This document shows positions 4,380 through 43,772 of a DNA stretch of 46,956 bases, piece after piece. Source of the stretch: Sphingomonadales bacterium. Its GTDB lineage: Bacteria > Pseudomonadota > Alphaproteobacteria > Sphingomonadales > Sphingomonadaceae. Made by a program: the position numbers and the translations under genes. The notes below the pieces were generated by a model. That model made no database searches and was not told the origin of the DNA. It worked only from the letters and a program-made list of their open reading frames with translations. Position 1 is the stretch's first letter. Every line of letters starts with the position of its first letter. Location: the NCBI GenBank assembly GCA_040255765.1, contig JBDZVP010000004.1, positions 1-46,956 on the forward strand, given 5' to 3'.

Positions 4380-5627
4380 TTAAGCGGTGCGGACAAGGCG
4401 GGCAGTGAAGAAGCCGTCGAGCCCGCCTTCGGATTCGAGGAGGCCGGGAAGAATTCTCACCCAACCTTCGGCGGTCGGCATCGCCACTCCATCTTCGGGA
4501 GGATCGATTCGAAATTCCGGGTGGCCGCGAAGGAAGCCGGAGACGATGTCTTCGCCTTCCTGCGGTTCCAGCGAGCAAACCGAGTACACAAGCGCCCCGC
4601 CCGGCCCGAGCCAGCCAGCGGCGCGGTCGAGCATCTTCACCTGCAGTTCGGCCGATTCGGCGATAATGCGCGGCCGGGCCCGGTAGAGGACTTCGGGATG
4701 GCGGCGAAATGTGCCGGTCGCGGAGCAAGGTGCATCGAGCAGGATAGCGTCATATCTTCGCGTCGGCTGCCACTTCAGGACGTCGGCGGCGACGAGCTCG
4801 GCGGTGAGCCCGGTGCGATCGAGATTCTCGCGAAGCCGCTTGAGGCGCGGCTCGGAAAAATCGACCGCGGTGACGTCATGACCCGCAGCCGCAAGCTGCA
4901 TGGCCTTCCCTCCTGGCGCGGAGCAGAGGTCGAGCACCGTCTTCGCCTCGGCGGGAATGAGGCGGGCTGGAATCGACGAGGCGAGGTCCTGAACCCACCA
5001 GTCGCCTGAGCCGAAGCCGGGGAGGTCGCCGATCGGCCCGGAGCGGGCCAACCGCACGTGCGTCGGGGCGAGCGAGGCACCACCGGTTCTCGACGCGAAG
5101 GCCCTGGCCGCTTCGCCTGACCTGAAGCTGAGGTCCAGAGGCGGGCGGACCGCGATCTGCCGGCGGGCGGCTTCGACGACATGCTCGCCCCAGGCTTCGC
5201 TCCAGCGTTGCTCGACGCCAGGCGGAAGGCGCGGCGCTTCGATCCTTGGCAACCCTCGCCGGAGCAGGGTTCCGAGCACGCCGTGGACGAGCCGCCGCGG
5301 GCCGCCGTCCACTAACGGCAGGGCGGTTGCGACGACAGCGTGGTCGGGCGTTTCGAGGCCAATCTTTTGGGCGAGCGCAATCCGAAGCACCATCCGCGCC
5401 TTGCTGTCGCCCGGCAGCGGCTTCTTCGTCGCGCTGTCGATGAGGGCATCGAGATCGGGAAGGCGCCGGAGGACTTCGCCGGCGATCGCGATCGCCAGAG
5501 CGTGATCGTTGGGCGCGAGAGCGCGTTCCGACTGGGCAGCGGAATCGAGTGTGCGAGCCCGGCGCAGCACCGAGTCGAGCATCTGCAATGCAGCTCGCCG
5601 TGCCGCCAATCCCTCAACGCTTGGCAT
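4380..5627 (-). CDS. rsmB: RsmB/NOP family RNA m5C methyltransferase with NusB-like N-terminus
   Basis: VQD, LDLCSAPGGK, LLDAPCSATG..RRHP, YSVCSL..EGE, DGFF. Confidence 0.9.
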   Translation of the reverse strand: MPSVEGLAARRAALQMLDSVLRRARTLDSAAQSERALAPNDHALAIAIAGEVLRRLPDLDALIDSATKKPLPGDSKARMVLRIALAQKIGLETPDHAVVATALPLVDGGPRRLVHGVLGTLLRRGLPRIEAPRLPPGVEQRWSEAWGEHVVEAARRQIAVRPPLDLSFRSGEAARAFASRTGGASLAPTHVRLARSGPIGDLPGFGSGDWWVQDLASSIPARLIPAEAKTVLDLCSAPGGKAMQLAAAGHDVTAVDFSEPRLKRLRENLDRTGLTAELVAADVLKWQPTRRYDAILLDAPCSATGTFRRHPEVLYRARPRIIAESAELQVKMLDRAAGWLGPGGALVYSVCSLEPQEGEDIVSGFLRGHPEFRIDPPEDGVAMPTAEGWVRILPGLLESEGGLDGFFTARLVRTA

Positions 5628-5655
5628 CGGCTCTGCCAGGCCTCATCTTGCAGGC

Positions 5656-5835
5656 ATGAAGCGGCCCCAAAAACGACCGGCGCATCTCGACCCGCCGAAG
5701 TACCTTTCCAAATCGCCGCCGGTGCCCGAGCCGGAGCCGCTGACGAATACCGAAGCCCCTCCCGGCGAAGAAGAGAAGCCCGATCCCACGCGCTACGGGG
5801 ACTGGGAAAAGAACGGAATCGCGAGCGATTTCTAA
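5656..5835 (+). CDS. DUF1674 (SDHAF4-like) small protein
   Basis: C-terminal signature DPTRYGDWEKNGIASDF; ATG at 5656. Confidence 0.9.
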   Translation: MKRPQKRPAHLDPPKYLSKSPPVPEPEPLTNTEAPPGEEEKPDPTRYGDWEKNGIASDF

Positions 5836-6812
5836 ACGCCTTCGATTTTCGGCGGGCGGGCGAGCAACTCCTCGACTACCGAATCGATGGCGGCGCCCTT
5901 GAGCAGCCGGTCGACCGAATCGACGATCGGCATGTCGATTCCGCGCTCGCTCGCAATACGCGCAAGCACCGGAGCAGTGAACGCGCCTTCGGCGACCGTC
6001 CGGCGATCCGCCATCAGCTCCGATGCAGACCGCCCCTCGCCGATCCCCTTGCCAAGCGAATAATTGCGTGAACTGGTCGAGGAGCAGGTGAGGACGAGGT
6101 CGCCGAGCCCTGACAGGCCGGCCAGCGTTTCTGGGTTGGCGCCCATCGCGACTCCGAATCGAGTCATTTCGGCGAAGCCGCGGGCGATCAGCGCGGCGCG
6201 TGCGTTCTGGCCGAGGCCGCGGCCCTCCACCACGCCGCAGGCGATGGCGAGAACGTTCTTGACCGCGCCGCCGATCTCGGCCCCGGCGACATCGTCGCTG
6301 AGGTAAATCCGGAACGTCGGCTGGGCCAGCGCCTCGCGAAGCTGGCGGCCGACGGTTCTGTCTTCGGCGGCGAGCGTGACCGCGGTCGGCAGGCCGCGAG
6401 CGACTTCGTGGGCGAAGGTCGGGCCGGAAAGGACCGCGACCGGTGCACCGGGACAGGCCTGGCCAGCGACCTGGTGCAACAGCTGGCCGCTGCGTTCTTC
6501 GATGCCCTTGGAGCAGAGGACCCGCGGGACGTCGCAGCGGGGCGCGCGCTCCAGGACCGTGCGCATGTGCTGCGCCGGCGTAACCACGAGCCACGCGTCG
6601 CAGTCTCCGATCGAGTCGAGATCTCCAGTCGCGCGGATCGCCGTGTCGAGCTTAACCCCGGGAAGGAAGATGGGATTTTCACGGGTCGAATTGACGGCGT
6701 CGACGACCTCGCGTTCCATCGCCCAAAGCAGCACTTCGCGCCCCGCCTTGGCCGCGACTTGCGCCAAAGCGGTTCCCCAGGCCCCCCCGCCGATAACCGC
6801 GATCCGATTCAC
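5832..6812 (-). CDS. gpsA: NAD(P)H-dependent glycerol-3-phosphate dehydrogenase
   Basis: GGGAWGTALA, SKGIE, SGPTFA, GAVKNV, GLGDLVLTC, SSRN. Confidence 0.97.
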   Translation of the reverse strand: MNRIAVIGGGAWGTALAQVAAKAGREVLLWAMEREVVDAVNSTRENPIFLPGVKLDTAIRATGDLDSIGDCDAWLVVTPAQHMRTVLERAPRCDVPRVLCSKGIEERSGQLLHQVAGQACPGAPVAVLSGPTFAHEVARGLPTAVTLAAEDRTVGRQLREALAQPTFRIYLSDDVAGAEIGGAVKNVLAIACGVVEGRGLGQNARAALIARGFAEMTRFGVAMGANPETLAGLSGLGDLVLTCSSTSSRNYSLGKGIGEGRSASELMADRRTVAEGAFTAPVLARIASERGIDMPIVDSVDRLLKGAAIDSVVEELLARPPKIEGV

Positions 6813-7840
6813 GCCTTGACCCCCGCGCCCCGCACTTTTTCGGCATCCGGATCGAGCGGCCAGCGCGCCCGTGCGGGAGCCGATAGATCGTCGGTGAGTG
6901 CGAGGGTGAAGCGCTCTGCCCCCGCCCAGGCGATCATCGCCGCATTATCCGTGCAAAGCCACGCGGGCGGGACGCTGAACCGGCGGCCGTTTTCGATCGC
7001 GAGCTTCTGAAGAGCGGAGCGGATCGCGCCGTTCGCCGCGACTCCTCCGGCAACGACGAGCGACGGGGCATCGCTGTTTCCGAGCGCCAGCCGGGTCCGG
7101 TCTACGAGGCAGTCCACCACCGCCTGCTGGAAGCTCGCGGCGATATCGGCGGGCGAATGCTCGCCGGAGACGGCGGCCCGCTGGACCGCGCTCTTGAGGC
7201 CGGCGAAGGAGAAATGCGGCTCGCCCGAACCCACCAGCGGACGCGGCAATGGTACCGCGGCCGGATCGCCATCCTTCGCGAGCTGCTCGATTGCAGGGCC
7301 ACCCGGATAGGCAAGGCCGAGGAGTTTTGCGGCCTTGTCGAACGCCTCGCCGGCGGCATCGTCGATGGTGGTCGCGAGGCGCCGGTATTCTCCGACTCCG
7401 AGCACCTCCAGAAGCTGGCAATGGCCGCCCGAGACCAGGAGCAGCAAATAAGGAAATTCGAGGTCGGGATCGACGAGCCGGGGACTAAGCGCATGGCCCT
7501 CGAGATGGTTGACCGCGATCAGCGGCTTGCCGGCCGAAAGGGCGATCCCCTTTGCGGTGAGCAGAGCGACCATCACTCCGCCAATCAGGCCGGGCCCCGC
7601 GGTCGCGGCGATTGCGTCGACTTCGCCGATGTCCATCTTCGCCTCGCGCAGCACCTGCTCGACGAGTCCGGGGAGGATCTGGACGTGGGCCCGGGCCGCG
7701 ATCTCGGGGACGACTCCGCCGAACGGGCGATGAGCCTCATTCTGTCCCACCACCGCCTGCGCGAGGATTCGCCGGTCGGTCGTGACCAGCGCCGCGGCGG
7801 TGTCGTCGCACGAAGATTCGAGGCCAAGGAGAATTGCCAT
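6809..7840 (-). CDS. tsaD: tRNA t6A threonylcarbamoyltransferase
   Basis: GLESSCDDT, GGVVPEIAARAH, HLEGH, SGGH, DDAAGEAFDK, CTDNAAMI; true start ATG 7840. Confidence 0.97.
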   Translation of the reverse strand: MAILLGLESSCDDTAAALVTTDRRILAQAVVGQNEAHRPFGGVVPEIAARAHVQILPGLVEQVLREAKMDIGEVDAIAATAGPGLIGGVMVALLTAKGIALSAGKPLIAVNHLEGHALSPRLVDPDLEFPYLLLLVSGGHCQLLEVLGVGEYRRLATTIDDAAGEAFDKAAKLLGLAYPGGPAIEQLAKDGDPAAVPLPRPLVGSGEPHFSFAGLKSAVQRAAVSGEHSPADIAASFQQAVVDCLVDRTRLALGNSDAPSLVVAGGVAANGAIRSALQKLAIENGRRFSVPPAWLCTDNAAMIAWAGAERFTLALTDDLSAPARARWPLDPDAEKVRGAGVKA

Positions 7841-7888
7841 GCGTTGTTTCCTTTGCCCGAACGCCGGGCGATGCACTAGTGGAGGCCA

Positions 7889-8809
7889 ATGGCCGGAAAT
7901 CCGAGACTTGGGACGCGCGGGTCCCCGCTTGCACTGATTCAGGCGCGAAAGATCGCCTCCGCCCTGGAAGTGGCGGAGCGCTGGCCGGCCGGGCACGTCG
8001 AAATCATCACCGTCAAGACGAGCGGCGACCGGATCGCCGACCGGCCGCTCGCCGAACTCGGGGGGAAGGGCCTGTGGACGAAGGAGCTGGATTCGGCGCT
8101 CCTCAACGGCGACGTCGATTTCTGCGTCCATTCGGTGAAGGACATCGAAGTTGTCCGCCCCAAGGAAATCCGCCTCGCCGCGATCAGGCCTCGCGTTTAC
8201 GTCGAGGATAAATTGCTCGGCGCCAGCTCGGTCGACGAGTTGAAGCAGGGCGCGGTCGTCGGCACCTCCTCGCCGCGGCGGGCGGCGCAGCTTCTTTCCG
8301 TGCGGCCCGACCTCAAGATCGTCACCCTTCGAGGCAATGTCGATACCCGCCTCAAGAAACTCGACGCCGGCGAGGTGGACGCGACAATCCTTTCGGCGGC
8401 GGGGCTTCATCGCCTCGGCCTCGATCATGTCGGCTCGCCGATTCCGTTCGAGGTGATGCTTCCGGCGCCGGGGCAGGGCGCCCTGGGGATCGAATGCCGC
8501 GCCGATGACGGCGACTGCATCCAGTTGTTGAAGCTTCTCGACGACGCGGCGAGCCGGTCGGCGGTTCAGGCGGAACGAGCCTTCGCCCGGGCACTCGGCG
8601 CATCGTGCCATTCTCCGGTCGCGGCGCTGGCCACGCCCGCACATAACCAGGTGCATTTGGTCGCCGAAATCCTGTCCGCCGACGGCAAGGAAAAGATGCG
8701 CGAGGAGATCAGTTTTCCGGCGGGGCGCGAGGAGAGAGCTTCGGAGCTCGCGCGCCGGATGCTGGAGCGGGCGCCCGAATCGATACGGACGCTCTTCGCC
8801 GCCGCATGA
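7889..8809 (+). CDS. hemC: Hydroxymethylbilane synthase
   Basis: GTRGSPLAL.Q, GGKGLWTKE, VHS.KD, GTSSPRR, RGNVDTRL, PAPGQG, SCHSP. Confidence 0.97.
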   Translation: MAGNPRLGTRGSPLALIQARKIASALEVAERWPAGHVEIITVKTSGDRIADRPLAELGGKGLWTKELDSALLNGDVDFCVHSVKDIEVVRPKEIRLAAIRPRVYVEDKLLGASSVDELKQGAVVGTSSPRRAAQLLSVRPDLKIVTLRGNVDTRLKKLDAGEVDATILSAAGLHRLGLDHVGSPIPFEVMLPAPGQGALGIECRADDGDCIQLLKLLDDAASRSAVQAERAFARALGASCHSPVAALATPAHNQVHLVAEILSADGKEKMREEISFPAGREERASELARRMLERAPESIRTLFAAA

Positions 8810-33327: not shown

Positions 33328-35279
<1,952 letters not shown>

Positions 35280-35324
35280 TTAGAGTGGAGTGATGGGGAG
35301 CGCTACTTTTGCGGGACGGCGTGG

Positions 35325-35483
35325 CGTCACGAAGTAAATTCGTGACGTCGATCGGGTTCGGCTGCGCCGACCCGTCGGCCGGCTTTCGCGCTCTCTTCGC
35401 GCAGCTTGCGCTCGGGCGCTCAAGCGACTGCCCTCGCTGGCGCCGGGACGCCAGCGAGGGAGTCCACGCGCGGACCTGGGCCG
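35325..35483 (-). ncRNA. Candidate structured RNA element, copy 1 (uncharacterised)
   Basis: 12-bp stem CCCTCGCTGGCG/CGCCAGCGAGGG, core shared with 38277-38339, additional hairpins at 35325-35347 and ~35354-35373. Confidence 0.55.
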
Positions 35484-35618
35484 TGCGTGAAAACGCTTAA
35501 CGGTCGCGACTCGGCGCGAAAACAACGCCCCGGTTCGGCAACCAGCTACAGCAGTCCTTGACCTTCAACAATCGTTTACCGCGGCCCGCCGCGATGAAAT
35601 TCGACGAGCGGATGGTGC

Positions 35619-38228
35619 CTAGAAAGCCTTTCGTATCTCAAGCTCGATCGTTCGGCCCAGCGGATCGCGATAGGCTGGCTGGTACTGGCGCGGCGTACCG
35701 CCCTGGAAATCGCGCACGCGCTGCCGATCGTTCAGCAGGTTAACGACGTCGAGCGAAACGCGCACACCCTTTGCCCAGGCGGAGTTCGGAAGGAAGCGCC
35801 GCGCATTCGCGAACAGGCGCATGTTGACGAGCAAAAGCGACGAGAAGCGAAGTGTGTCACTAACTCCGCCGATGTTCGTGTCGAGCTTGCTCGCACCGCG
35901 CCACGTCACTCCGACGCGCGCTCCGAGACCTCCCGATGTCAGTGCGGCGGTCCCGTCGACCTGGTGACGAACGCGTCCGCCGCCTATCCCAAGCGCGCCG
36001 CCGCCAAGGAGGTCGACCGTGTCGAGGCCGGGGCGGATCAGCAATTTGTCGGAAAAGACGACCGTGTGGTTGGCGCTGAGCTGAAGATAGGTCGAAGGCG
36101 TCCGTCCGCGCGCAGGTGCGGCGGCCTCCCCCTCATCGCCCGAGTCCGAATCCGCAGCCGATCCACCCTTTGCGCCCGGCCCGAGAATATTGCCGCTGGC
36201 GAGCTTTGCCCGCATGCTGACTCCCCAGCGCAGCCTCTTCTCACGATGCGAATCGAAGTTGATCGGGCGGAGGTCGACCGTCGTCAGGTTCCCGTCGGCA
36301 TCCCGGATGAAGCGGTCGGGAAAGGCGAGCATGACCGGCACGCTCGCCGGCGGAAGCGCGGAGAGGTAATTGCGGGCGTCGGTGTCGGTATATTCGGCGG
36401 TGAGCTGGAGATTGTACCGGGGCAGCAGCTTGAATGTGCTCGAAACGCGTTTGATTTTCAGCTTCTCCGGGCGGAGCGCCGGGTTCCCGCCGGTGATCTG
36501 GCTGACGTCCACCGTTTCTCCCGTGAGCGGATCGAAGACCCGGACATCCGAGACTTCGACTACTGGGTCGCCAAGCACCTGCATCGAGGGCGCTGTCTGG
36601 CTGTCCTCGATCGATCCGCGCAGTTCGACGGGCGGAATCGGTTGCCACGTCAGTCCGAGCGCCCAGCTATCGAGGGCGCCGGCGTCCGAAACATGGGTGG
36701 TGCCATATTCCGCGTTTGCGGAGAGCATTCCGATGGCCCCGAGCAAGCCGACTCCGGGGGCGGCGATCGGGACGTCAAGCGCGCCGCGGATCGCTTGCTC
36801 GTGCCGGCGGAAATCCCGATTGCTGCTGGCGAAGAAGGAGCTTCGCGAGTGGAGCCGGTACCAAGACAGCCGCCCGTCAATCGTCGCCTGCAAAGGTCCG
36901 GCGGGGAGGTTGGCGATCGGTCCGACAAAGGAAAGCTCGGCGGTATCCGAGATATTCCGCGACCTGGCCCGGTCAGAGGTGATTCCGATCAGGCCGGAAA
37001 GATCGGTCGCGAACGGGTTGAGATCATCGTCGAGCCGGACAAATCCAAACGTCGACTGCCGGTCGGTGTCGATGACATCGCGCGATTCCAGATGGCCGGC
37101 GTTGAGATTCCCGACCCACTGACCGAAGCGGCCATTAAAGGCGATCCGTCCCTCGCCGTTATCACGTGCGTAGCGGGACCGAAGCGGGTCGCGGCCATAG
37201 TATAAGAGCGAGACGTCGGTCGAAAACGGCGAGGAGCTATTGTCCGCGGGCAGCTGAAACAGGCCGGAGGGCAAGCCGCGGAGCGCCCGGTTGACATTCC
37301 TGGTCAGCCGGACGCTCGCGTTCGTCGACAGCCACGGCGCGAGCCGGGTCGCAAACGTCCCGTTGAAATCGTAATTGCGCACTCTTGGGCGAAGGGTTCT
37401 GAACCGGCCGAGATCGGTCGAGTTGGGATCGTTGGCGACGCCCAAGAAATCGCCCAGCGCCGGCGTCGGAATAGCCAGGACCGGAACGGCCGTCACGACT
37501 TCCCCGGCGAGCGCACTCAGCAGCGGGTCGATTTCGCCGGACGTGTCCGGATATCCCGCGATGTTGCCTTCGAGGGCGTAGGGCCGGATGGGCGTGGGCT
37601 GGATAATTCCGCGCTCACTTTCCAGAAGCGAGGATTCGCCGCGTACGCGAAGGCCCAGGTTCGCGCGCGTGGCCCCGCGGATATAGGTCGCAAGGGCTTC
37701 GCCGCGGCCGGCGTGCCAATCGCCGTCGGTGGCCGTCTTCGCGGCGCCGGTGAGCGTACCGGCTCGCATCTTGCGCTGGAGGGTCAGGCTCAGCACCCGC
37801 TGGCCGGTCGAGCCGCCCAGACGGACGGCCGAGCCTCGCGGGAGCACCTGGAGGTTGCGGATCGCTTCGACCGGGAAGGCTCCGATGTCCTGGAGTCCGT
37901 TCACCCGCTCGCCATTGACGAGGATCATCGGCTCGACGTCGTCGCCAAAGTCGCCCTGGACCTCGTCGAGGAGTTCGTCGACCGTGCTCACGCCATAACT
38001 GTCGATGGCGTCGCGATCGAGGTTGGCTTCCGGCGATACGTCGCGGAACAGCGCCTGCCCGACGATCAGGATTTCCTGGTGCTGCTGGTCTGTAGGTGTC
38101 TGTGCGGCGGCGTCGGAAGAGTCTGCTGCCGAAGTGTTCGCCAAGAGCGGCGCTGCCGTGCCGGTCAGCAGGAGCGCAATGATCAGGCGCGATCCGCGCC
38201 GGCGCTGGTGGAGCGGCCCATTATTCAT
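35619..38228 (-). CDS. TonB-dependent receptor-like outer membrane barrel
   Basis: Signal peptide, EILIVG box, plug-like ILVNG..PVEAI...VL, GGNP.LRPE, C-terminal GRTIELEIRKAF. Confidence 0.8.
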   Translation of the reverse strand: MNNGPLHQRRRGSRLIIALLLTGTAAPLLANTSAADSSDAAAQTPTDQQHQEILIVGQALFRDVSPEANLDRDAIDSYGVSTVDELLDEVQGDFGDDVEPMILVNGERVNGLQDIGAFPVEAIRNLQVLPRGSAVRLGGSTGQRVLSLTLQRKMRAGTLTGAAKTATDGDWHAGRGEALATYIRGATRANLGLRVRGESSLLESERGIIQPTPIRPYALEGNIAGYPDTSGEIDPLLSALAGEVVTAVPVLAIPTPALGDFLGVANDPNSTDLGRFRTLRPRVRNYDFNGTFATRLAPWLSTNASVRLTRNVNRALRGLPSGLFQLPADNSSSPFSTDVSLLYYGRDPLRSRYARDNGEGRIAFNGRFGQWVGNLNAGHLESRDVIDTDRQSTFGFVRLDDDLNPFATDLSGLIGITSDRARSRNISDTAELSFVGPIANLPAGPLQATIDGRLSWYRLHSRSSFFASSNRDFRRHEQAIRGALDVPIAAPGVGLLGAIGMLSANAEYGTTHVSDAGALDSWALGLTWQPIPPVELRGSIEDSQTAPSMQVLGDPVVEVSDVRVFDPLTGETVDVSQITGGNPALRPEKLKIKRVSSTFKLLPRYNLQLTAEYTDTDARNYLSALPPASVPVMLAFPDRFIRDADGNLTTVDLRPINFDSHREKRLRWGVSMRAKLASGNILGPGAKGGSAADSDSGDEGEAAAPARGRTPSTYLQLSANHTVVFSDKLLIRPGLDTVDLLGGGALGIGGGRVRHQVDGTAALTSGGLGARVGVTWRGASKLDTNIGGVSDTLRFSSLLLVNMRLFANARRFLPNSAWAKGVRVSLDVVNLLNDRQRVRDFQGGTPRQYQPAYRDPLGRTIELEIRKAF

Positions 38229-38276
38229 TTTGCCTGTGCCCCCCAGAAAGGCTGCGCGAGGATAGGAGGTAGTGAG

Positions 38277-38339
38277 TGGCCCTGCGCGCTACCCTGCCTG
38301 GCTAGGCCAGGCAGGGAGTCCACGCGCGGTTCTGGGCCG
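38277..38339 (-). ncRNA. Candidate structured RNA element, copy 2 (uncharacterised)
   Basis: Minus strand GGCCC-AGAAC-CGCGC-GTGGACT-CCCTGCCTGGC-CTA-GCCAGGCAGGG-TA-GCGCG-CA-GGGCC nested stems. Confidence 0.6.
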
Positions 38340-38347
38340 CTAGTGAA

Positions 38348-39070
38348 TTAGATTTGCGGGATGTTTCCGCTCGGGATCGTTCCGCCCGCGGCCGCACTGG
38401 CGGCAGCACATTTGCTCGGATCGAATCCGTTCTTGCCGGTCCAGACGCCGCCCTTCTTGCCGGGGCTGATGCAGATCAGCGCATTCACTTCCTGGCCATA
38501 GAGGGTGATTGGACCATTGTTGGTGTCGAACCCGTTCGGGCCGGCAGTCTGGTCATGATCGACGGCGGTGTTGCCGGTGGTCTGCAGTCCGGGCGGCTCG
38601 ACCAGGTGGCCGCCACCGTTGATCTTCCAGACGTGGCAGCTGACCGTGATGGTCCGCTTCGTGTTCTGGATCGTGGTATATTCCTGCGTGCTGTTCGGAT
38701 AGGTCAGCGTGGCCTGGCCGTGACCCCAGACATTGGGGCTGCCGCCGTTCCTGAAGTAGCTGCCATCGGCGATGAAAAAGCTGCCGGTCGGGGTTCCGGT
38801 GACAACCGGATCGCCGACGTTCTGGTCGCGGACCGGAGCGCCGTCATTGACCCAGCCGCTGTCCTGGACGTCGGTCGGTTCGGTCTGGAAGCCCGATGCG
38901 GCGGCCGGCCGAAGAGCTTCGTCGCAGATCGCCTGCGCGTCATAATCGCCGTCGAGGGTGACGGGAGTCAGGACGGTACTATCGCCGTCGTCGGCATATG
39001 CCGGCGCCATGAAAACGGGAGTTAATGCGGATGTCAGGACGGCTGTCGCCGCCAATAGTGCGCGTTTCAT
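38348..39070 (-). CDS. Secreted protein of unknown function (240 aa, 4 Cys, G/T/N/D-rich)
   Basis: MKRALLAATAVL...PAYA signal peptide, GGGGA SD, GC3-rich codons. Confidence 0.8.
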   Translation of the reverse strand: MKRALLAATAVLTSALTPVFMAPAYADDGDSTVLTPVTLDGDYDAQAICDEALRPAAASGFQTEPTDVQDSGWVNDGAPVRDQNVGDPVVTGTPTGSFFIADGSYFRNGGSPNVWGHGQATLTYPNSTQEYTTIQNTKRTITVSCHVWKINGGGHLVEPPGLQTTGNTAVDHDQTAGPNGFDTNNGPITLYGQEVNALICISPGKKGGVWTGKNGFDPSKCAAASAAAGGTIPSGNIPQI

Positions 39071-39160
39071 TTGGATTCCCCAAATTACCCGGTTGAGTAT
39101 GTCAGCCGGCGGGTCACCCAGAACGACTCGCTGGTGAATTTGCATTTACCGGCGAGTAAA

Positions 39161-39203
39161 TAACGAATTAAGTTATCGTAAGTTAACCACTAACGATAGT
39201 TAG
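39161..39203. promoter_or_regulatory. AT-rich array of TAAC/GTTA boxes, putative response-regulator operator
   Basis: CTAAC-GATA-GTTAG palindrome, TATC-GTAA-GTTA variant, TAAGTTA repeated 10 bp apart. Confidence 0.55.
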
Positions 39204-39241: not shown

Positions 39242-39856
39242 CTAGCTTCCAACCCATTCCGCGGCCCGGATCGCGAGCTCCGTGCGGTTGGCGACGCCGG
39301 TTTTCTCGAACACGCTGTGGAGATAGACTTTCACCGTCCCCTCGGTAATTCCGAGACGGTCGGCGATGTCCCGGTTGCGCAGGCCTTGCCGGACCAGCTG
39401 CACCAGTTCGGTTTCGCGTGGCGAAAGCAGCGACCTGTCGCGCGCCGCCGTGGGCCGCGCCGCCTCTTCCTGGATGTTGCGGTCGATCCATTCGTCTCCG
39501 GCTCGAACGGAATCGAGACAGTCGATGAGGAGCGCCGGGTCCGACGTCTTCAGAAGAACGCCATCGACCTTGAGGCTCAGGGCTTCGGAAAACCCGGTTT
39601 CGTCGAGCGAGGCGGTCAGGAGCACGACCTTGCGGTTGTCGCCGCTGGAGCGGAGCTGCCGAAGCACTTCAATGCCGCTCCCGTCCGGCATCTGGATGTC
39701 GAGAACGACGATCTCGGGATCGTGCTCGGCGATCTCCCGGAGCGCCTCGTTGCCGCTGCTCGCCTTGGCGACGAGCTTGTAATCGCTCCCGCGAAGCATC
39801 GCCTCGACGGCGGCCTGGATCATCGGGTGGTCATCGGCGAGCAGGATTTGAGTCAC
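39242..39856 (-). CDS. NarL/LuxR family response regulator
   Basis: ADDHP, LDIQMP, LSPRE..GLRNRDIA..LGITEGTVKVYL. Confidence 0.95.
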   Translation of the reverse strand: MTQILLADDHPMIQAAVEAMLRGSDYKLVAKASSGNEALREIAEHDPEIVVLDIQMPDGSGIEVLRQLRSSGDNRKVVLLTASLDETGFSEALSLKVDGVLLKTSDPALLIDCLDSVRAGDEWIDRNIQEEAARPTAARDRSLLSPRETELVQLVRQGLRNRDIADRLGITEGTVKVYLHSVFEKTGVANRTELAIRAAEWVGS

Positions 39857-41478
39857 GGCCGGGCCTCCGGTTTGAGTGGCAAGGTTATCGAAACGTCTGT
39901 TCCGGTTTCACGAGTGGTGAGCATCAGGGTTCCATTGGCCTCGTCGACTCGCTCGCGGAGGGACCAGGGAGTGCCCTCCTTTAGCCGCTCGTTGCCGCTT
40001 CCGTCATTGCCGATGTCGAGCCTAAGGTCGCCCTCGTCGGCGGTTAGCTGGACCGTGATGTGCTTCGCGCGGGCGTGGCGGACGGCATTCGCGACGGCTT
40101 CTCGGATGAGCTGGTGAGTATCGAGGTGAAGCCGCATCGGGACGCTGGTTTCGGGAACTTCGGCCGAGAACAGGCACTGGATGTCCCACTGCATCGCCAG
40201 CCGGGTGCACAGAGCGCGAAGGTCGGCAGCAAGTTTGGGGAGCGGGATGGTCTCGCTCTTGAGCGCACCGATCGCCGACCGAAGCTCCTGCTGCTCGTGC
40301 AAAAGCAGCCGCTTCAGGTCGTTCAGCTCGCGGTCGGGCTGGTCTCCCAACCGCAGGGCGCGGCTGATCGCCTCGATTCGGAAGGTTGCGCCGGCAAGGA
40401 ACTGGACGATGCTGTCGTGCAAATCCCGTGCGAGCGACAATCGCGCCCGGGCGATCGCGCCGTCTTCGACAGCCGCCAGAAGCGCGTGGCGCTGGATTTG
40501 CGCCGCGAGCGCGCTGCCCAACGTTTCGCCGAAATCGATATGGTCGGTGCACAGGCCGGAGATTCCGCCGAGGAGAAGGATACCCTCGCCCGCCGCGGTC
40601 TCGATTGGAACCCCAAGGCCCTCCTCGATGCCATGCTTGCGGGCGATTTCGGAATCAACCAGCGAGTCAGCCGTGGCGAAACGCATTCGCCGGTGCAGGC
40701 CCCTGCAGATCCCGCGATTGCGCCGGATATCGAAAAGGACCGGCCCCCGTTCGATCTTGACCGAACGGGATGGCAAGGCGGTGGTGCTGGTCTCGATGCC
40801 TTTCCTCGCGATCGCGAGCCAATGCTCGCTTCCGCGGCCGCGCCAAATCAGAAGCGCGCTCGAGGCTCCCGCGACCGCCGTCGCGCCTTCGATTGCGCTG
40901 TCGAGCGGCGACTCGCCTGGCGAAACGTCGCGAAGCAAGTCGTCTTTCAACGACCGAAGGCCCGAAAATCCGTGGTTCACCCCGAACCAGATCAGGACAA
41001 CGGAGAGGACGACGAGGTTGCCTGCCCTGATAATGAATCGCTGCAGGTCGAAATTGCCGCCGTGATCGGTTCCCGCAACCAGGCCCGCAGCGACATAGAG
41101 CAAGGTCACCGGGACCGCCGTCAACGTCGTCTCGCGCCATCCCCATCGGATCGCCGCCGACAGCACGAGGAACACGAAAAAGACGAAAAAGGGGCTGGTG
41201 TAACCGTCGCTTGTGAGCACCAGCAAGGTGAAGGCGAGTATATCCACGACCTGCATCGGCGCCGCGAGCCGGGCATCGAGCCACCAATTGTCCCAGGTCA
41301 GTACGGCGACGAGCGCGGCCGCGACGACGTAAGTTGCGAGGACTGCATAGGTTGCCACCGCGGCCGTTGCCGGCTGGCTCGGGTCGATCCAGATCGCGAA
41401 CAGGAAAACCGCGGCGAGAACTGCGCGAGCAAGCGCGATCACGCGGCCGGACCGATGTTTCAGTACGTCGTCGAACAC
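39853..41478 (-). CDS. Membrane sensor histidine kinase, HisKA_3 type
   Basis: About 6 TM segments, GAF-like linker, ARDLHD, EAVANAVRHA; stop overlaps the regulator start; start codon uncertain (41478 or 41499). Confidence 0.9.
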   Translation of the reverse strand: MFDDVLKHRSGRVIALARAVLAAVFLFAIWIDPSQPATAAVATYAVLATYVVAAALVAVLTWDNWWLDARLAAPMQVVDILAFTLLVLTSDGYTSPFFVFFVFLVLSAAIRWGWRETTLTAVPVTLLYVAAGLVAGTDHGGNFDLQRFIIRAGNLVVLSVVLIWFGVNHGFSGLRSLKDDLLRDVSPGESPLDSAIEGATAVAGASSALLIWRGRGSEHWLAIARKGIETSTTALPSRSVKIERGPVLFDIRRNRGICRGLHRRMRFATADSLVDSEIARKHGIEEGLGVPIETAAGEGILLLGGISGLCTDHIDFGETLGSALAAQIQRHALLAAVEDGAIARARLSLARDLHDSIVQFLAGATFRIEAISRALRLGDQPDRELNDLKRLLLHEQQELRSAIGALKSETIPLPKLAADLRALCTRLAMQWDIQCLFSAEVPETSVPMRLHLDTHQLIREAVANAVRHARAKHITVQLTADEGDLRLDIGNDGSGNERLKEGTPWSLRERVDEANGTLMLTTRETGTDVSITLPLKPEARP

Positions 41479-41563
41479 CGGCCCCGGACCCCCGAGCAAA
41501 CCTGCTGCTAACTTGCGATATAGCAGCCGCCACTAGGATACGGGAAGTCGGACAGTGAACAGT

Positions 41564-43682: not shown

Positions 43683-43772
<90 letters not shown>

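Follow-up and report, generated by a model that had tools for sequence, protein, structure and literature searches.

The 46,956-nucleotide stretch analyzed here (the window; contig JBDZVP010000004.1 of the Sphingomonadales assembly GCA_040255765.1) carries two copies of a small element on either side of a gene for a TonB-dependent-receptor-like β-barrel. The element is very probably a conserved RNA structure of the minus strand and consists of two adjacent hairpins, P1 (UUCAC...GUGGA) and P2 (CCCU...AGGG-Y-AG). With roughly even chances of being correct, our functional reading is that of an RNA derived from a terminator, whose C-rich loop masks ribosome-binding sites (RBSs), in cis in the case of copy 2 and probably in trans in the case of copy 1. 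On the minus strand, the order is histidine kinase, LuxR regulator, a gene for an exported protein designated orfX, copy 2, the receptor-like barrel gene, copy 1, a separate repeat and obgE. The source genome (G000) comprises 2.0 Mb at 85.5% completeness.

The initial annotation of the window had proposed a duplicated structured element, and the duplication holds: 17 nt are exactly shared (35457-35473 and 38313-38329), the core is identical at 25 of 27 positions, and blastn returns an E value of 0.001. A third copy with up to two mismatches was not found in the 2.0 Mb, 85.5%-complete genome. The hairpins of both copies are more stable than shuffled sequences (z −4.6 to −6.0 for 76-81 nt pieces, with 0/200 shuffles as good). 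Hairpin P1 (35463-35491 and 38319-38347), which carries what had been described as the conserved core, had been overlooked. The CG-to-GC swap noted on both stem arms is real and recurs in the family, since the pairs 49-75 and 50-74 of a 28-row alignment are changed two-sidedly in 11 and 10 of the rows, respectively.

A DNA search of the 271 genus genomes retrieved gave 19 others with copy 1 at E <1e-7, with weaker matches of the copy 2 type. In total, the element occurs in 26 of these genomes and, together with metagenome contigs, 62 distinct copies remained after removal of duplicates. Genomes G020, G096, G120, G197 and G198, flagged as unpublished, enter tallies only, and no claim depends on them. 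Because the sequences in the family are related, the counts do not represent independent events. A covariance model (R1) built from 28 copies found matches in 18 of 150 genus genomes and in none of 150 order genomes, while 150 family genomes yielded one borderline match at chance level (E 0.039). An unfiltered search with the model of 17 obg loci (16 without copy 1 there and that of G260) gave nothing under E 1. In a pattern scan of all species, the full fold was present in 16 rows among the at least 120 matches listed; the next best of these (L091) lies inside rnhA and was dropped. Among metagenomes, 38 of 40 loci were true copies, and the matches L279 and L283 were discarded as chance hits. 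As judged from these searches of sequence collections, the element is confined to part of one sphingomonad genus. Literature on small RNAs of the genus, stem-loops of TonB systems and motifs of Sphingomonadales was searched, with subscription papers and motif supplements outside its scope, and the element was not found there.

The fold itself is well conserved. In the 28-row MAFFT alignment, 93.3% of the cells are paired and 7 of 23 pairs are changed two-sidedly. Covariation amounts to 0.221, compared with 0.117 in shuffled and at most 0.045 in slid controls, for which pairing falls to about 40%. For P2 across all 62 copies, 659 of 682 cells are Watson-Crick pairs, 18 are G-U, two are A-C and three are other combinations. 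The fold conservation and the two-sided changes support selection on RNA structure, as had been suggested. One-sided pair changes yield G-U on the minus strand, and cUUCGg is the commonest loop in P2 of the copy 2 type (5/33). This wobble bias together with the UUCG loops points to an RNA that is sense to the genes, and a plus-strand reading was rejected on the same grounds. A decoy for Csr/Rsm proteins resembling RsmW was also considered and dropped, as its single GGA loop lies on the disfavored strand; CsrA (PF02599) was not found in G000 at 85.5% completeness.

The element belongs to no Rfam family, in agreement with the initial annotation: a scan of Rfam 15 gave no match at the gathering threshold over either copy. 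The best sub-threshold match was RsmW on the opposite strand (23.3 bits, with a gathering threshold of 52), and copy 2 attracted miRNA-type noise. Nor is the element an ordinary terminator. A GC-rich hairpin is present in form of P2 (11-17 bp), but the U-tract is missing, as had been pointed out, with at least five T within 8 nt 3′ of the hairpin in just 1 of the 62 copies, and a terminator scan made no call on it. Two copies in G000, one or two per relative genome and fixed neighbors speak against a high-copy repetitive extragenic palindromic (REP) sequence.

The two copies had been regarded as equivalent motifs with unrelated loops and shared outer helices. Comparison across the family instead splits them into distinct types, each with one invariant loop. 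For this purpose, copies were sorted by loop first and their position was checked afterwards, and the two agree. Thus, 31 copies are placed between a gene resembling orfX and the receptor gene, all with the loop CCAGAA in P1 (copy 2 type), and 29 have the P2 loop UCCCGG (copy 1 type), of which 27 are neighbors of obg, one is on a truncated contig and one is located elsewhere. Because the sorting relied on UCCCGG, the invariance of this loop carries meaning only by virtue of the positional agreement. The remaining two copies are orphans with CCAGAA, whose locus lacks orfX and the receptor gene relative to G237. These orphans (L078:625-709 and L079:33-115) are located between a gene for an EAL-domain protein and a convergent lepA, at the site that orfX and the receptor gene occupy in G237; in L078, a −10 hexamer of the obg type lies 7 nt 5′ of P1. 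The GGCC and CGCGC outer helices ascribed to both copies are found in 28 and 22 of the 31 copy-2-type elements but merely in one and three of the 29 copy-1-type elements, and those apparent in copy 1 of the window derive from an unrelated repeat inserted beside it. A similar split applies to the GANTC site reported for each core, which is present in both copies of the window, while the site at the P1-P2 junction is kept in all 29 copy-1-type elements and in just 8 of the 33 others. A CcrM-methylated regulatory site common to both types is therefore not conserved, GANTC being missing in 25 of those 33, and in copy 1 pairing on either side of the site already constrains its bases. The junction bases between P1 and P2 are invariant or nearly so in both types and form the most conserved part of the element.

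Copy 2 lies between orfX (38348..39070) and the receptor-like gene (35619..38228). Its P1 (38319..38347, minus strand) is situated immediately 3′ of the orfX stop codon and presents the loop CCCAGAA (38330-38336) as the predicted anti-RBS sequence. It is followed by P2 (38292..38316, minus strand) with 11 bp, a variable loop and a resemblance to the orfX terminator stem of relatives. Among the 31 copy-2-type elements, P1 starts 0-2 nt past the upstream stop in 23 according to a script and in one more by reading. The loop is complementary to the sequence TTCTGGG plus the G-run Shine-Dalgarno (SD) sequence of the receptor gene (38239..38248, minus strand), TTCTGGG being located just before and within this G-run. 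It precedes the receptor gene in 29 of 31 cases, and TCTGGG in 30 of 31, at an expectation of 0.002 per 45 nt. Across the whole genome, TTCTGGG occurs in one of 1898 crudely called initiation regions, namely that of the receptor gene. TCTGGG is found in none of eight receptor orthologues and none of three distant paralogues without the element. On a receptor tree, which is a quick and weakly supported one with 3 of 30 branches starred, the presence of TCTGGG and of the element is scattered, requiring 7 changes, with 27 of 500 shuffles as low.

Copy 2 can adopt other folds as well. The GCGCG tail after P2 and the GGGCC outer strand (38276..38289, minus strand) can form competing helices that exclude P1 and bury its loop: one joins the 3′ strand of P1 to the tail, and the outer one buries the CCC of the loop. 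The counts given above refer to competing helices of at least 5 and at least 6 bp, respectively, which arise in 19% and 38% of shuffles. In L038 and L080, base changes that keep the register preserve these helices. P1 pairing is kept in 96.5% of the cells of the copy 2 type, and the minimum-energy fold usually favors the competing helices over P1 (n=30), with median energies above the minimum of 5.8 kcal/mol for the P1 state, 5.3 kcal/mol for the loop-RBS state and 0.1 kcal/mol for the outer-helix state. With three mutually exclusive states that differ by no more than about 6 kcal/mol, and with the RBS covered in one of them, copy 2 has the anatomy of a translational switch. Mutually exclusive helices that reach the RBS, as in the expression platforms of riboswitches, are seen for the copy 2 type only, while loop complementarity to an RBS is seen for both, i. 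e. for CCCAGAA with TTCTGGG as described and for UCCCGG with CCGGG(A) in 7 of 7 cases.

According to the mechanism that we propose, the element would be transcribed, probably processed, and would repress translation by pairing of its C-rich loop with G-rich sequence at RBSs in vivo. In copy 2, P2 would cap the orfX message at its 3′ end. The first hairpin to fold would be P1, leaving CCCAGAA exposed to cover the receptor RBS (off state), and refolding into the longer competing helices would bury CCCAGAA (on state). This refolding would probably be aided by a ribosome that, on terminating at the stop codon of orfX, melts the five pairs at the base of P1. A terminating ribosome opens about five bases past the stop codon by its helicase activity, and this stretch corresponds to the basal helix of P1. 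The outcome would be a receptor output that is low and tied to orfX.

As for the origin of the element, relatives without it and three other genera carry orfX followed by a hairpin with a U-tract and stems of the CC(C/U)(C/U)GCC type. In G168, G121, G009 and G077, this terminator stem begins with CCCTG and ends with CAGGG like P2, and partial forms are found in G187 and G212. From such stems at the 3′ end of orfX, we infer that P2 probably descends from the orfX terminator. Four genomes carry both terminator and element, which suggests a tandem duplication. Living relatives display terminator only, terminator plus element, element only, an orphan element and a promoter-driven copy. We tentatively put forward a scenario in which the terminator lost its U-tract and gained a hairpin to become a ribosome-tripped switch that links expression of the secreted β-protein with that of its outer-membrane barrel. 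A duplicate of this switch would then have acquired a CtrA-type promoter and a new seed and turned into a small RNA that acts in trans under cell-cycle control, exerts feedback on the operon and outlives it.

Copy 1 has the features of a free-standing small RNA. It combines P1 (35463..35491, minus strand), which has a UUCAC/GUGGA base with a U-G wobble and a loop that varies among copy-1-type elements and can be UUCG, with a 17-bp P2 (35426..35464, minus strand) that contains one bulged pyrimidine and the loop UCCCGG (35443-35448; identical in 29/29), and no rival helices are present. A predicted promoter lies upstream (35543..35578, minus strand), composed of TTGTTG-N17-TAGC (35571-35543) and an overlapping CtrA-like box (35578-35564), from which the RNA is predicted to start near 35536-35539 and to reach a length of about 115 nt. 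The TTGTTG-N17-TAGC arrangement is kept with exact spacing in 22 of 29 copy-1-type elements, occurs once in the whole genome and persists behind four different upstream genes (that of the receptor, a regulator, a GNAT gene and another). No consensus RNA fold was found for this upstream block, and a GAGUC/GACUC pairing considered there is broken by GATTC and GAATC variants. The CtrA-like box has at most one mismatch in 17 of 29 elements and two in the window. It overlaps the −35 region, and its 5′ base falls about 39-42 nt before the predicted start, comparable to the box at −39 described for CtrA-activated promoters of Caulobacter (PMC4287350). The kinase neighboring orfX was not found in G274, which retains the box of copy 1, and CtrA is therefore preferred over the adjacent kinase/regulator pair as the putative regulator of copy 1. 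Closer to P1, at a distance of 13-19 nt on its 5′ side, the sequence CGAGTCG (35507..35513, minus strand) represents a GANTCG motif with a variable middle base that is found within 45 nt of P1 in 27 of 29 copy-1-type elements. It could belong to a promoter close to P1 or to a small hairpin at the 5′ end; it also matches the preference YGAKTCK reported for GcrA (PMC4647560), which is encoded in the genome.

Copy 1 is inverted relative to obg in G189 and located away from obg in G260. It is kept in 9 of 16 genomes (89-99% complete) without a detected orfX or receptor orthologue, with membership in the copy 1 clade being based on similarity ranking. The initial description of an element that flanks the TonB-type gene thus applies to the window but is not a defining feature, as copy 1 stays beside obg where the receptor gene is absent. 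The promoter-like block, the lack of rival helices, the changing context and the persistence without orfX constitute the profile of a free-standing small RNA, and we consider it likely that copy 1 is a separately transcribed RNA. Copy 1 would then be a duplicate that gained a CtrA/σ70-type promoter and lost the competing helices, and it would act as a small RNA of 75-115 nt with the invariant UCCCGG loop as its seed. One candidate target is the orfX leader: at a distance of up to 30 nt from the start of orfX, CCGGG is found in all 7 genomes or contigs that carry copy 1, but in just 1 of 15 that lack it.

In the window, this leader and the promoter of orfX (39088..39171, minus strand) comprise CCGGG adjoining the SD sequence (39088-39092) as the candidate target of the copy 1 loop, GTTCTGGG (39117-39124) as a complement of the copy 2 loop, a GANTC site and a CtrA-like box (39157-39171). 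CtrA boxes with at most one mismatch are present in 25 of 32 orfX promoters at a background of 0.024 per kb. In most members the CtrA-like box is positioned at a near-fixed 22-23 nt 5′ of GANTC, and repeated TAAC/GTTA half-sites occur in the window between 39088 and 39200. The leader closes with a GAGUC/GACUC or a GACUCGCCUC/GAGGCGAG stem. It also contains a perfect complement of 8-10 nt to the element past its own stop codon, in form of two sequences in two lineages (39117-39124; L242, L082 and L083). Perfect complements of at least 8 nt are found in 16 of 33 cases, compared with 14% in shuffles, most of them in the two lineages, and the duplex energies show no consistent gain over shuffles. 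Pairing between the 5′ and 3′ parts of the orfX message is possible.

Several observations weigh against the anti-RBS model. The starred branches of the receptor tree force just 2 changes, and a joint loss of element and RBS match could be due to block replacement of the whole intergenic region. By column count, just 2 pairs are changed two-sidedly in one of the competing helices and 0 in the other. For the loop-RBS helix there is no two-sided substitution, both sides being nearly invariant, and G049 is mismatched. Receptor RBSs lacking the element also sit in local hairpins, and the loop may thus add little. Seven of the 31 copies are separated from the stop codon by 19-158 nt, four of these behind an intact terminator, which means that the ribosome trigger cannot be general. 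Moreover, a downstream hairpin P3 is weak in the window's own copy, the two orphans retain CCCAGAA without a receptor gene behind them, and the P1-P2 junction, although it is the most conserved part and common to both types, is left unexplained by the model. Regarding the origin, some of the P2-like terminators could instead be degenerate elements. As for the trans activity of copy 1, the 7/7 association with CCGGG is confounded by kinship, orfX cannot be the sole target since copy 1 survives without it, and across the genome, initiation regions hold no excess of matches to the seed (33 observed and 47 expected, with crude gene calls).

An alternative that we regard as unlikely assigns the element a passive role as a stabilizer of 3′ ends or a degenerate internal terminator. 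P2 and the stacked P1 would either shield the upstream RNA from 3′ exonucleases or mark a site of processing or Rho termination, leaving more orfX RNA than receptor RNA, and the complementarities would be incidental. This reading fits the location of P2 where relatives have a true terminator, the fact that copy 1 as well is often found behind a gene end, and the report on other operons that their transcript ratios are determined by long, GC-rich, U-poor stems (PMC9045158). It does not account for loops that are invariant, for an RBS match that is lost together with the element, or for the conserved competing helices, the fixed 17-nt promoter spacing or the copies behind an intact terminator. 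Rather unlikely, too, is a sensor with a decoy. In this case, a hypothetical protein or small ligand bound at the P1-P2 junction would keep P1 of copy 2 formed, giving riboswitch-like control of the receptor, and copy 1, locked in the same state, would titrate this factor. Such an arrangement would make sense of a junction that is nearly invariant across both types, of competing helices in copy 2 with none in copy 1, where P1 and P2 are reinforced, and of CtrA-like boxes on both transcription units. Yet, each copy occurs alone in many genomes, the invariant UCCCGG loop is restricted to copy 1, and a metabolite aptamer would be expected to have more conserved unpaired bases and a wider distribution.

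Two further explanations are improbable. The element could act as DNA, for instance as a unit resembling REP sequences or miniature inverted-repeat transposable elements (MITEs), as a recombination site or as a methylation-dependent operator. Two palindromic direct repeats that flank a single gene would be in line with this possibility, as would the junction GANTC in the window and in all copy-1-type elements. It is, however, hard to reconcile with one or two copies per genome in fixed contexts, and genomes without the receptor gene keep the upstream sequence of copy 1 itself instead of the hybrid expected from a crossover between the copies. A Y1 (RAYT) transposase (PF01797) was not found in the 85.5%-complete G000, the phage and plasmid collections gave no match, and the UUCG loops, the wobble bias toward one strand and the absence of GANTC in 25 of 33 other copies are also contrary to a DNA-level function. 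At least as remote is a role of copy 1 as a cis-acting leader, i. e. an attenuator, of obgE. It is true that the distance to obg is about 430 nt or less for 27 of 29 copy-1-type elements, 26 of which share its strand. But whether or not the element is present in a genome, obg is preceded by an apparent leaderless promoter of its own, and the spacer ranges from about 40 to more than 300 nt and accommodates repeats or a small gene. Moreover, copy 1 is inverted in G189 and displaced in G260, and it has no conserved helix in common with obg.

Among known systems, repY-repZ of IncI plasmids exemplifies how a ribosome that finishes an upstream frame remodels a structure governing the next start. There, a pseudoknot activates translation and is blocked by an antisense RNA, whereas the loop-RBS pairing of the element studied here is predicted to repress. 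In its mode of action, the RNA AbnZ of Caulobacter crescentus comes closest, a GC-rich RNA from a gene 3′ end described as repressing tamAB by pairing of C-rich loops with a G-run (PMC11724286). Shared features are stable GC-rich hairpins at the 3′ end of a gene in an alphaproteobacterium and C-rich loops for which pairing is described, or in our case predicted, to a G-rich stretch close to the start of a gene with a role in envelope translocation. As far as its description goes, AbnZ is a processed, trans-acting RNA in which three hairpins carry homopolymer loops of C7 and C16 (PMC11724286). The present element has two hairpins, its loops are CCCAGAA or UCCCGG, the target predicted for the cis-acting copy lies 85 nt downstream, and the other copy is preceded by a predicted promoter. 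This comparison is based on the description of AbnZ and on the Rfam scan rather than on a direct alignment of the sequences. Next in likeness would be ChvR-ChvT of Caulobacter and U-poor internal terminators. In the former, a small RNA transcribed under the control of a response regulator pairs with the message of a TonB-dependent receptor; ChvR is portrayed as a trans-acting product of ChvI-ChvG with two pairing sites and, in the account given of it, has no intercistronic cis copy (PMC6237742). The latter, and stabilizing stem-loops alike, are likewise GC-rich and U-poor and reside between genes for abundant exported proteins and transporters, but are characterized as single hairpins with a reduced U-tract (PMC9045158), in contrast to the second hairpin, conserved loops, competing helices, missing U-tract and free-standing copy found here.

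The origins of small RNAs and cis switches are hard to study because intermediates are seldom preserved. Here, terminator, intercistronic element and free-standing copy can be compared within one genus, with the two element copies of the window within 3 kb. The element also provides a first handle on the dosage of an uncharacterized pair of secreted protein and TonB barrel, for which control by CtrA is predicted. Should the passive role in 3′-end stabilization be correct, the element would represent a modest new entry for Rfam.

The genes around the element are in part unusual themselves. The receptor-like β-barrel gene (minus strand) encodes 869 aa with a match to PF00593 (E 5.6e-11); in L069 (G268) its counterpart (about 5593-8032) has a frameshift near residue 600, with both RNA copies intact, and the gene is split in G121, too. 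The product of orfX (minus strand) has 240 aa, a signal-peptide-like N-terminus and four invariant cysteines. Its family, present in 26 of 271 genus genomes, consists of exported proteins of 240-350 aa that share these cysteines, are very divergent (24-58% identity) and are always encoded immediately 5′ of the same receptor subfamily. No Pfam or NCBIfam family was matched, and orfX was absent from the viral contigs searched. Its predicted structure is an elongated β fold (pLDDT 92.4) without a Foldseek match at E 0.001, and Atlas structure matches of a homologue were all below 0.9. The best, weak likeness is to Rib/cadherin-type domains, with a Z score of 4.2 and an rmsd of 3.3 over 69 residues for Rib domains. 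One possibility is a secreted protein at the cell surface that has a barrel of its own. Upstream of orfX, the LuxR-family response regulator and the HisKA_3 histidine kinase (39242..41499, minus strand) are not constantly linked to the element.

On the other side, obgE (34230..35270, minus strand) is the downstream neighbor of copy 1 and appears leaderless throughout the genus, with a −10-like hexamer 6-8 nt 5′ of the ATG (35270-35310 in the window; L330-L359) and highly variable genes upstream. Three unrelated loci (L036, L069 and L282) have the same small open reading frame (about 'MSIIGRR...') as an insertion in the interval from copy 1 to obg. Between copy 1 and the obg promoter, the window contains a separate palindromic repeat with multiple hairpins (35319-35425), in place of which contigs of close strains carry a 39-nt spacer. 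This repeat has three blast hits in G000, occurs at several places per genome in most genus genomes, where it makes up the bulk of the matches in 110 of the 151 searched, and appears to be REP/MITE-like. Elsewhere in the window, Rfam thresholds are passed by a serC leader (RF00517; 19862-19914) and a tRNA gene (43683-43769).

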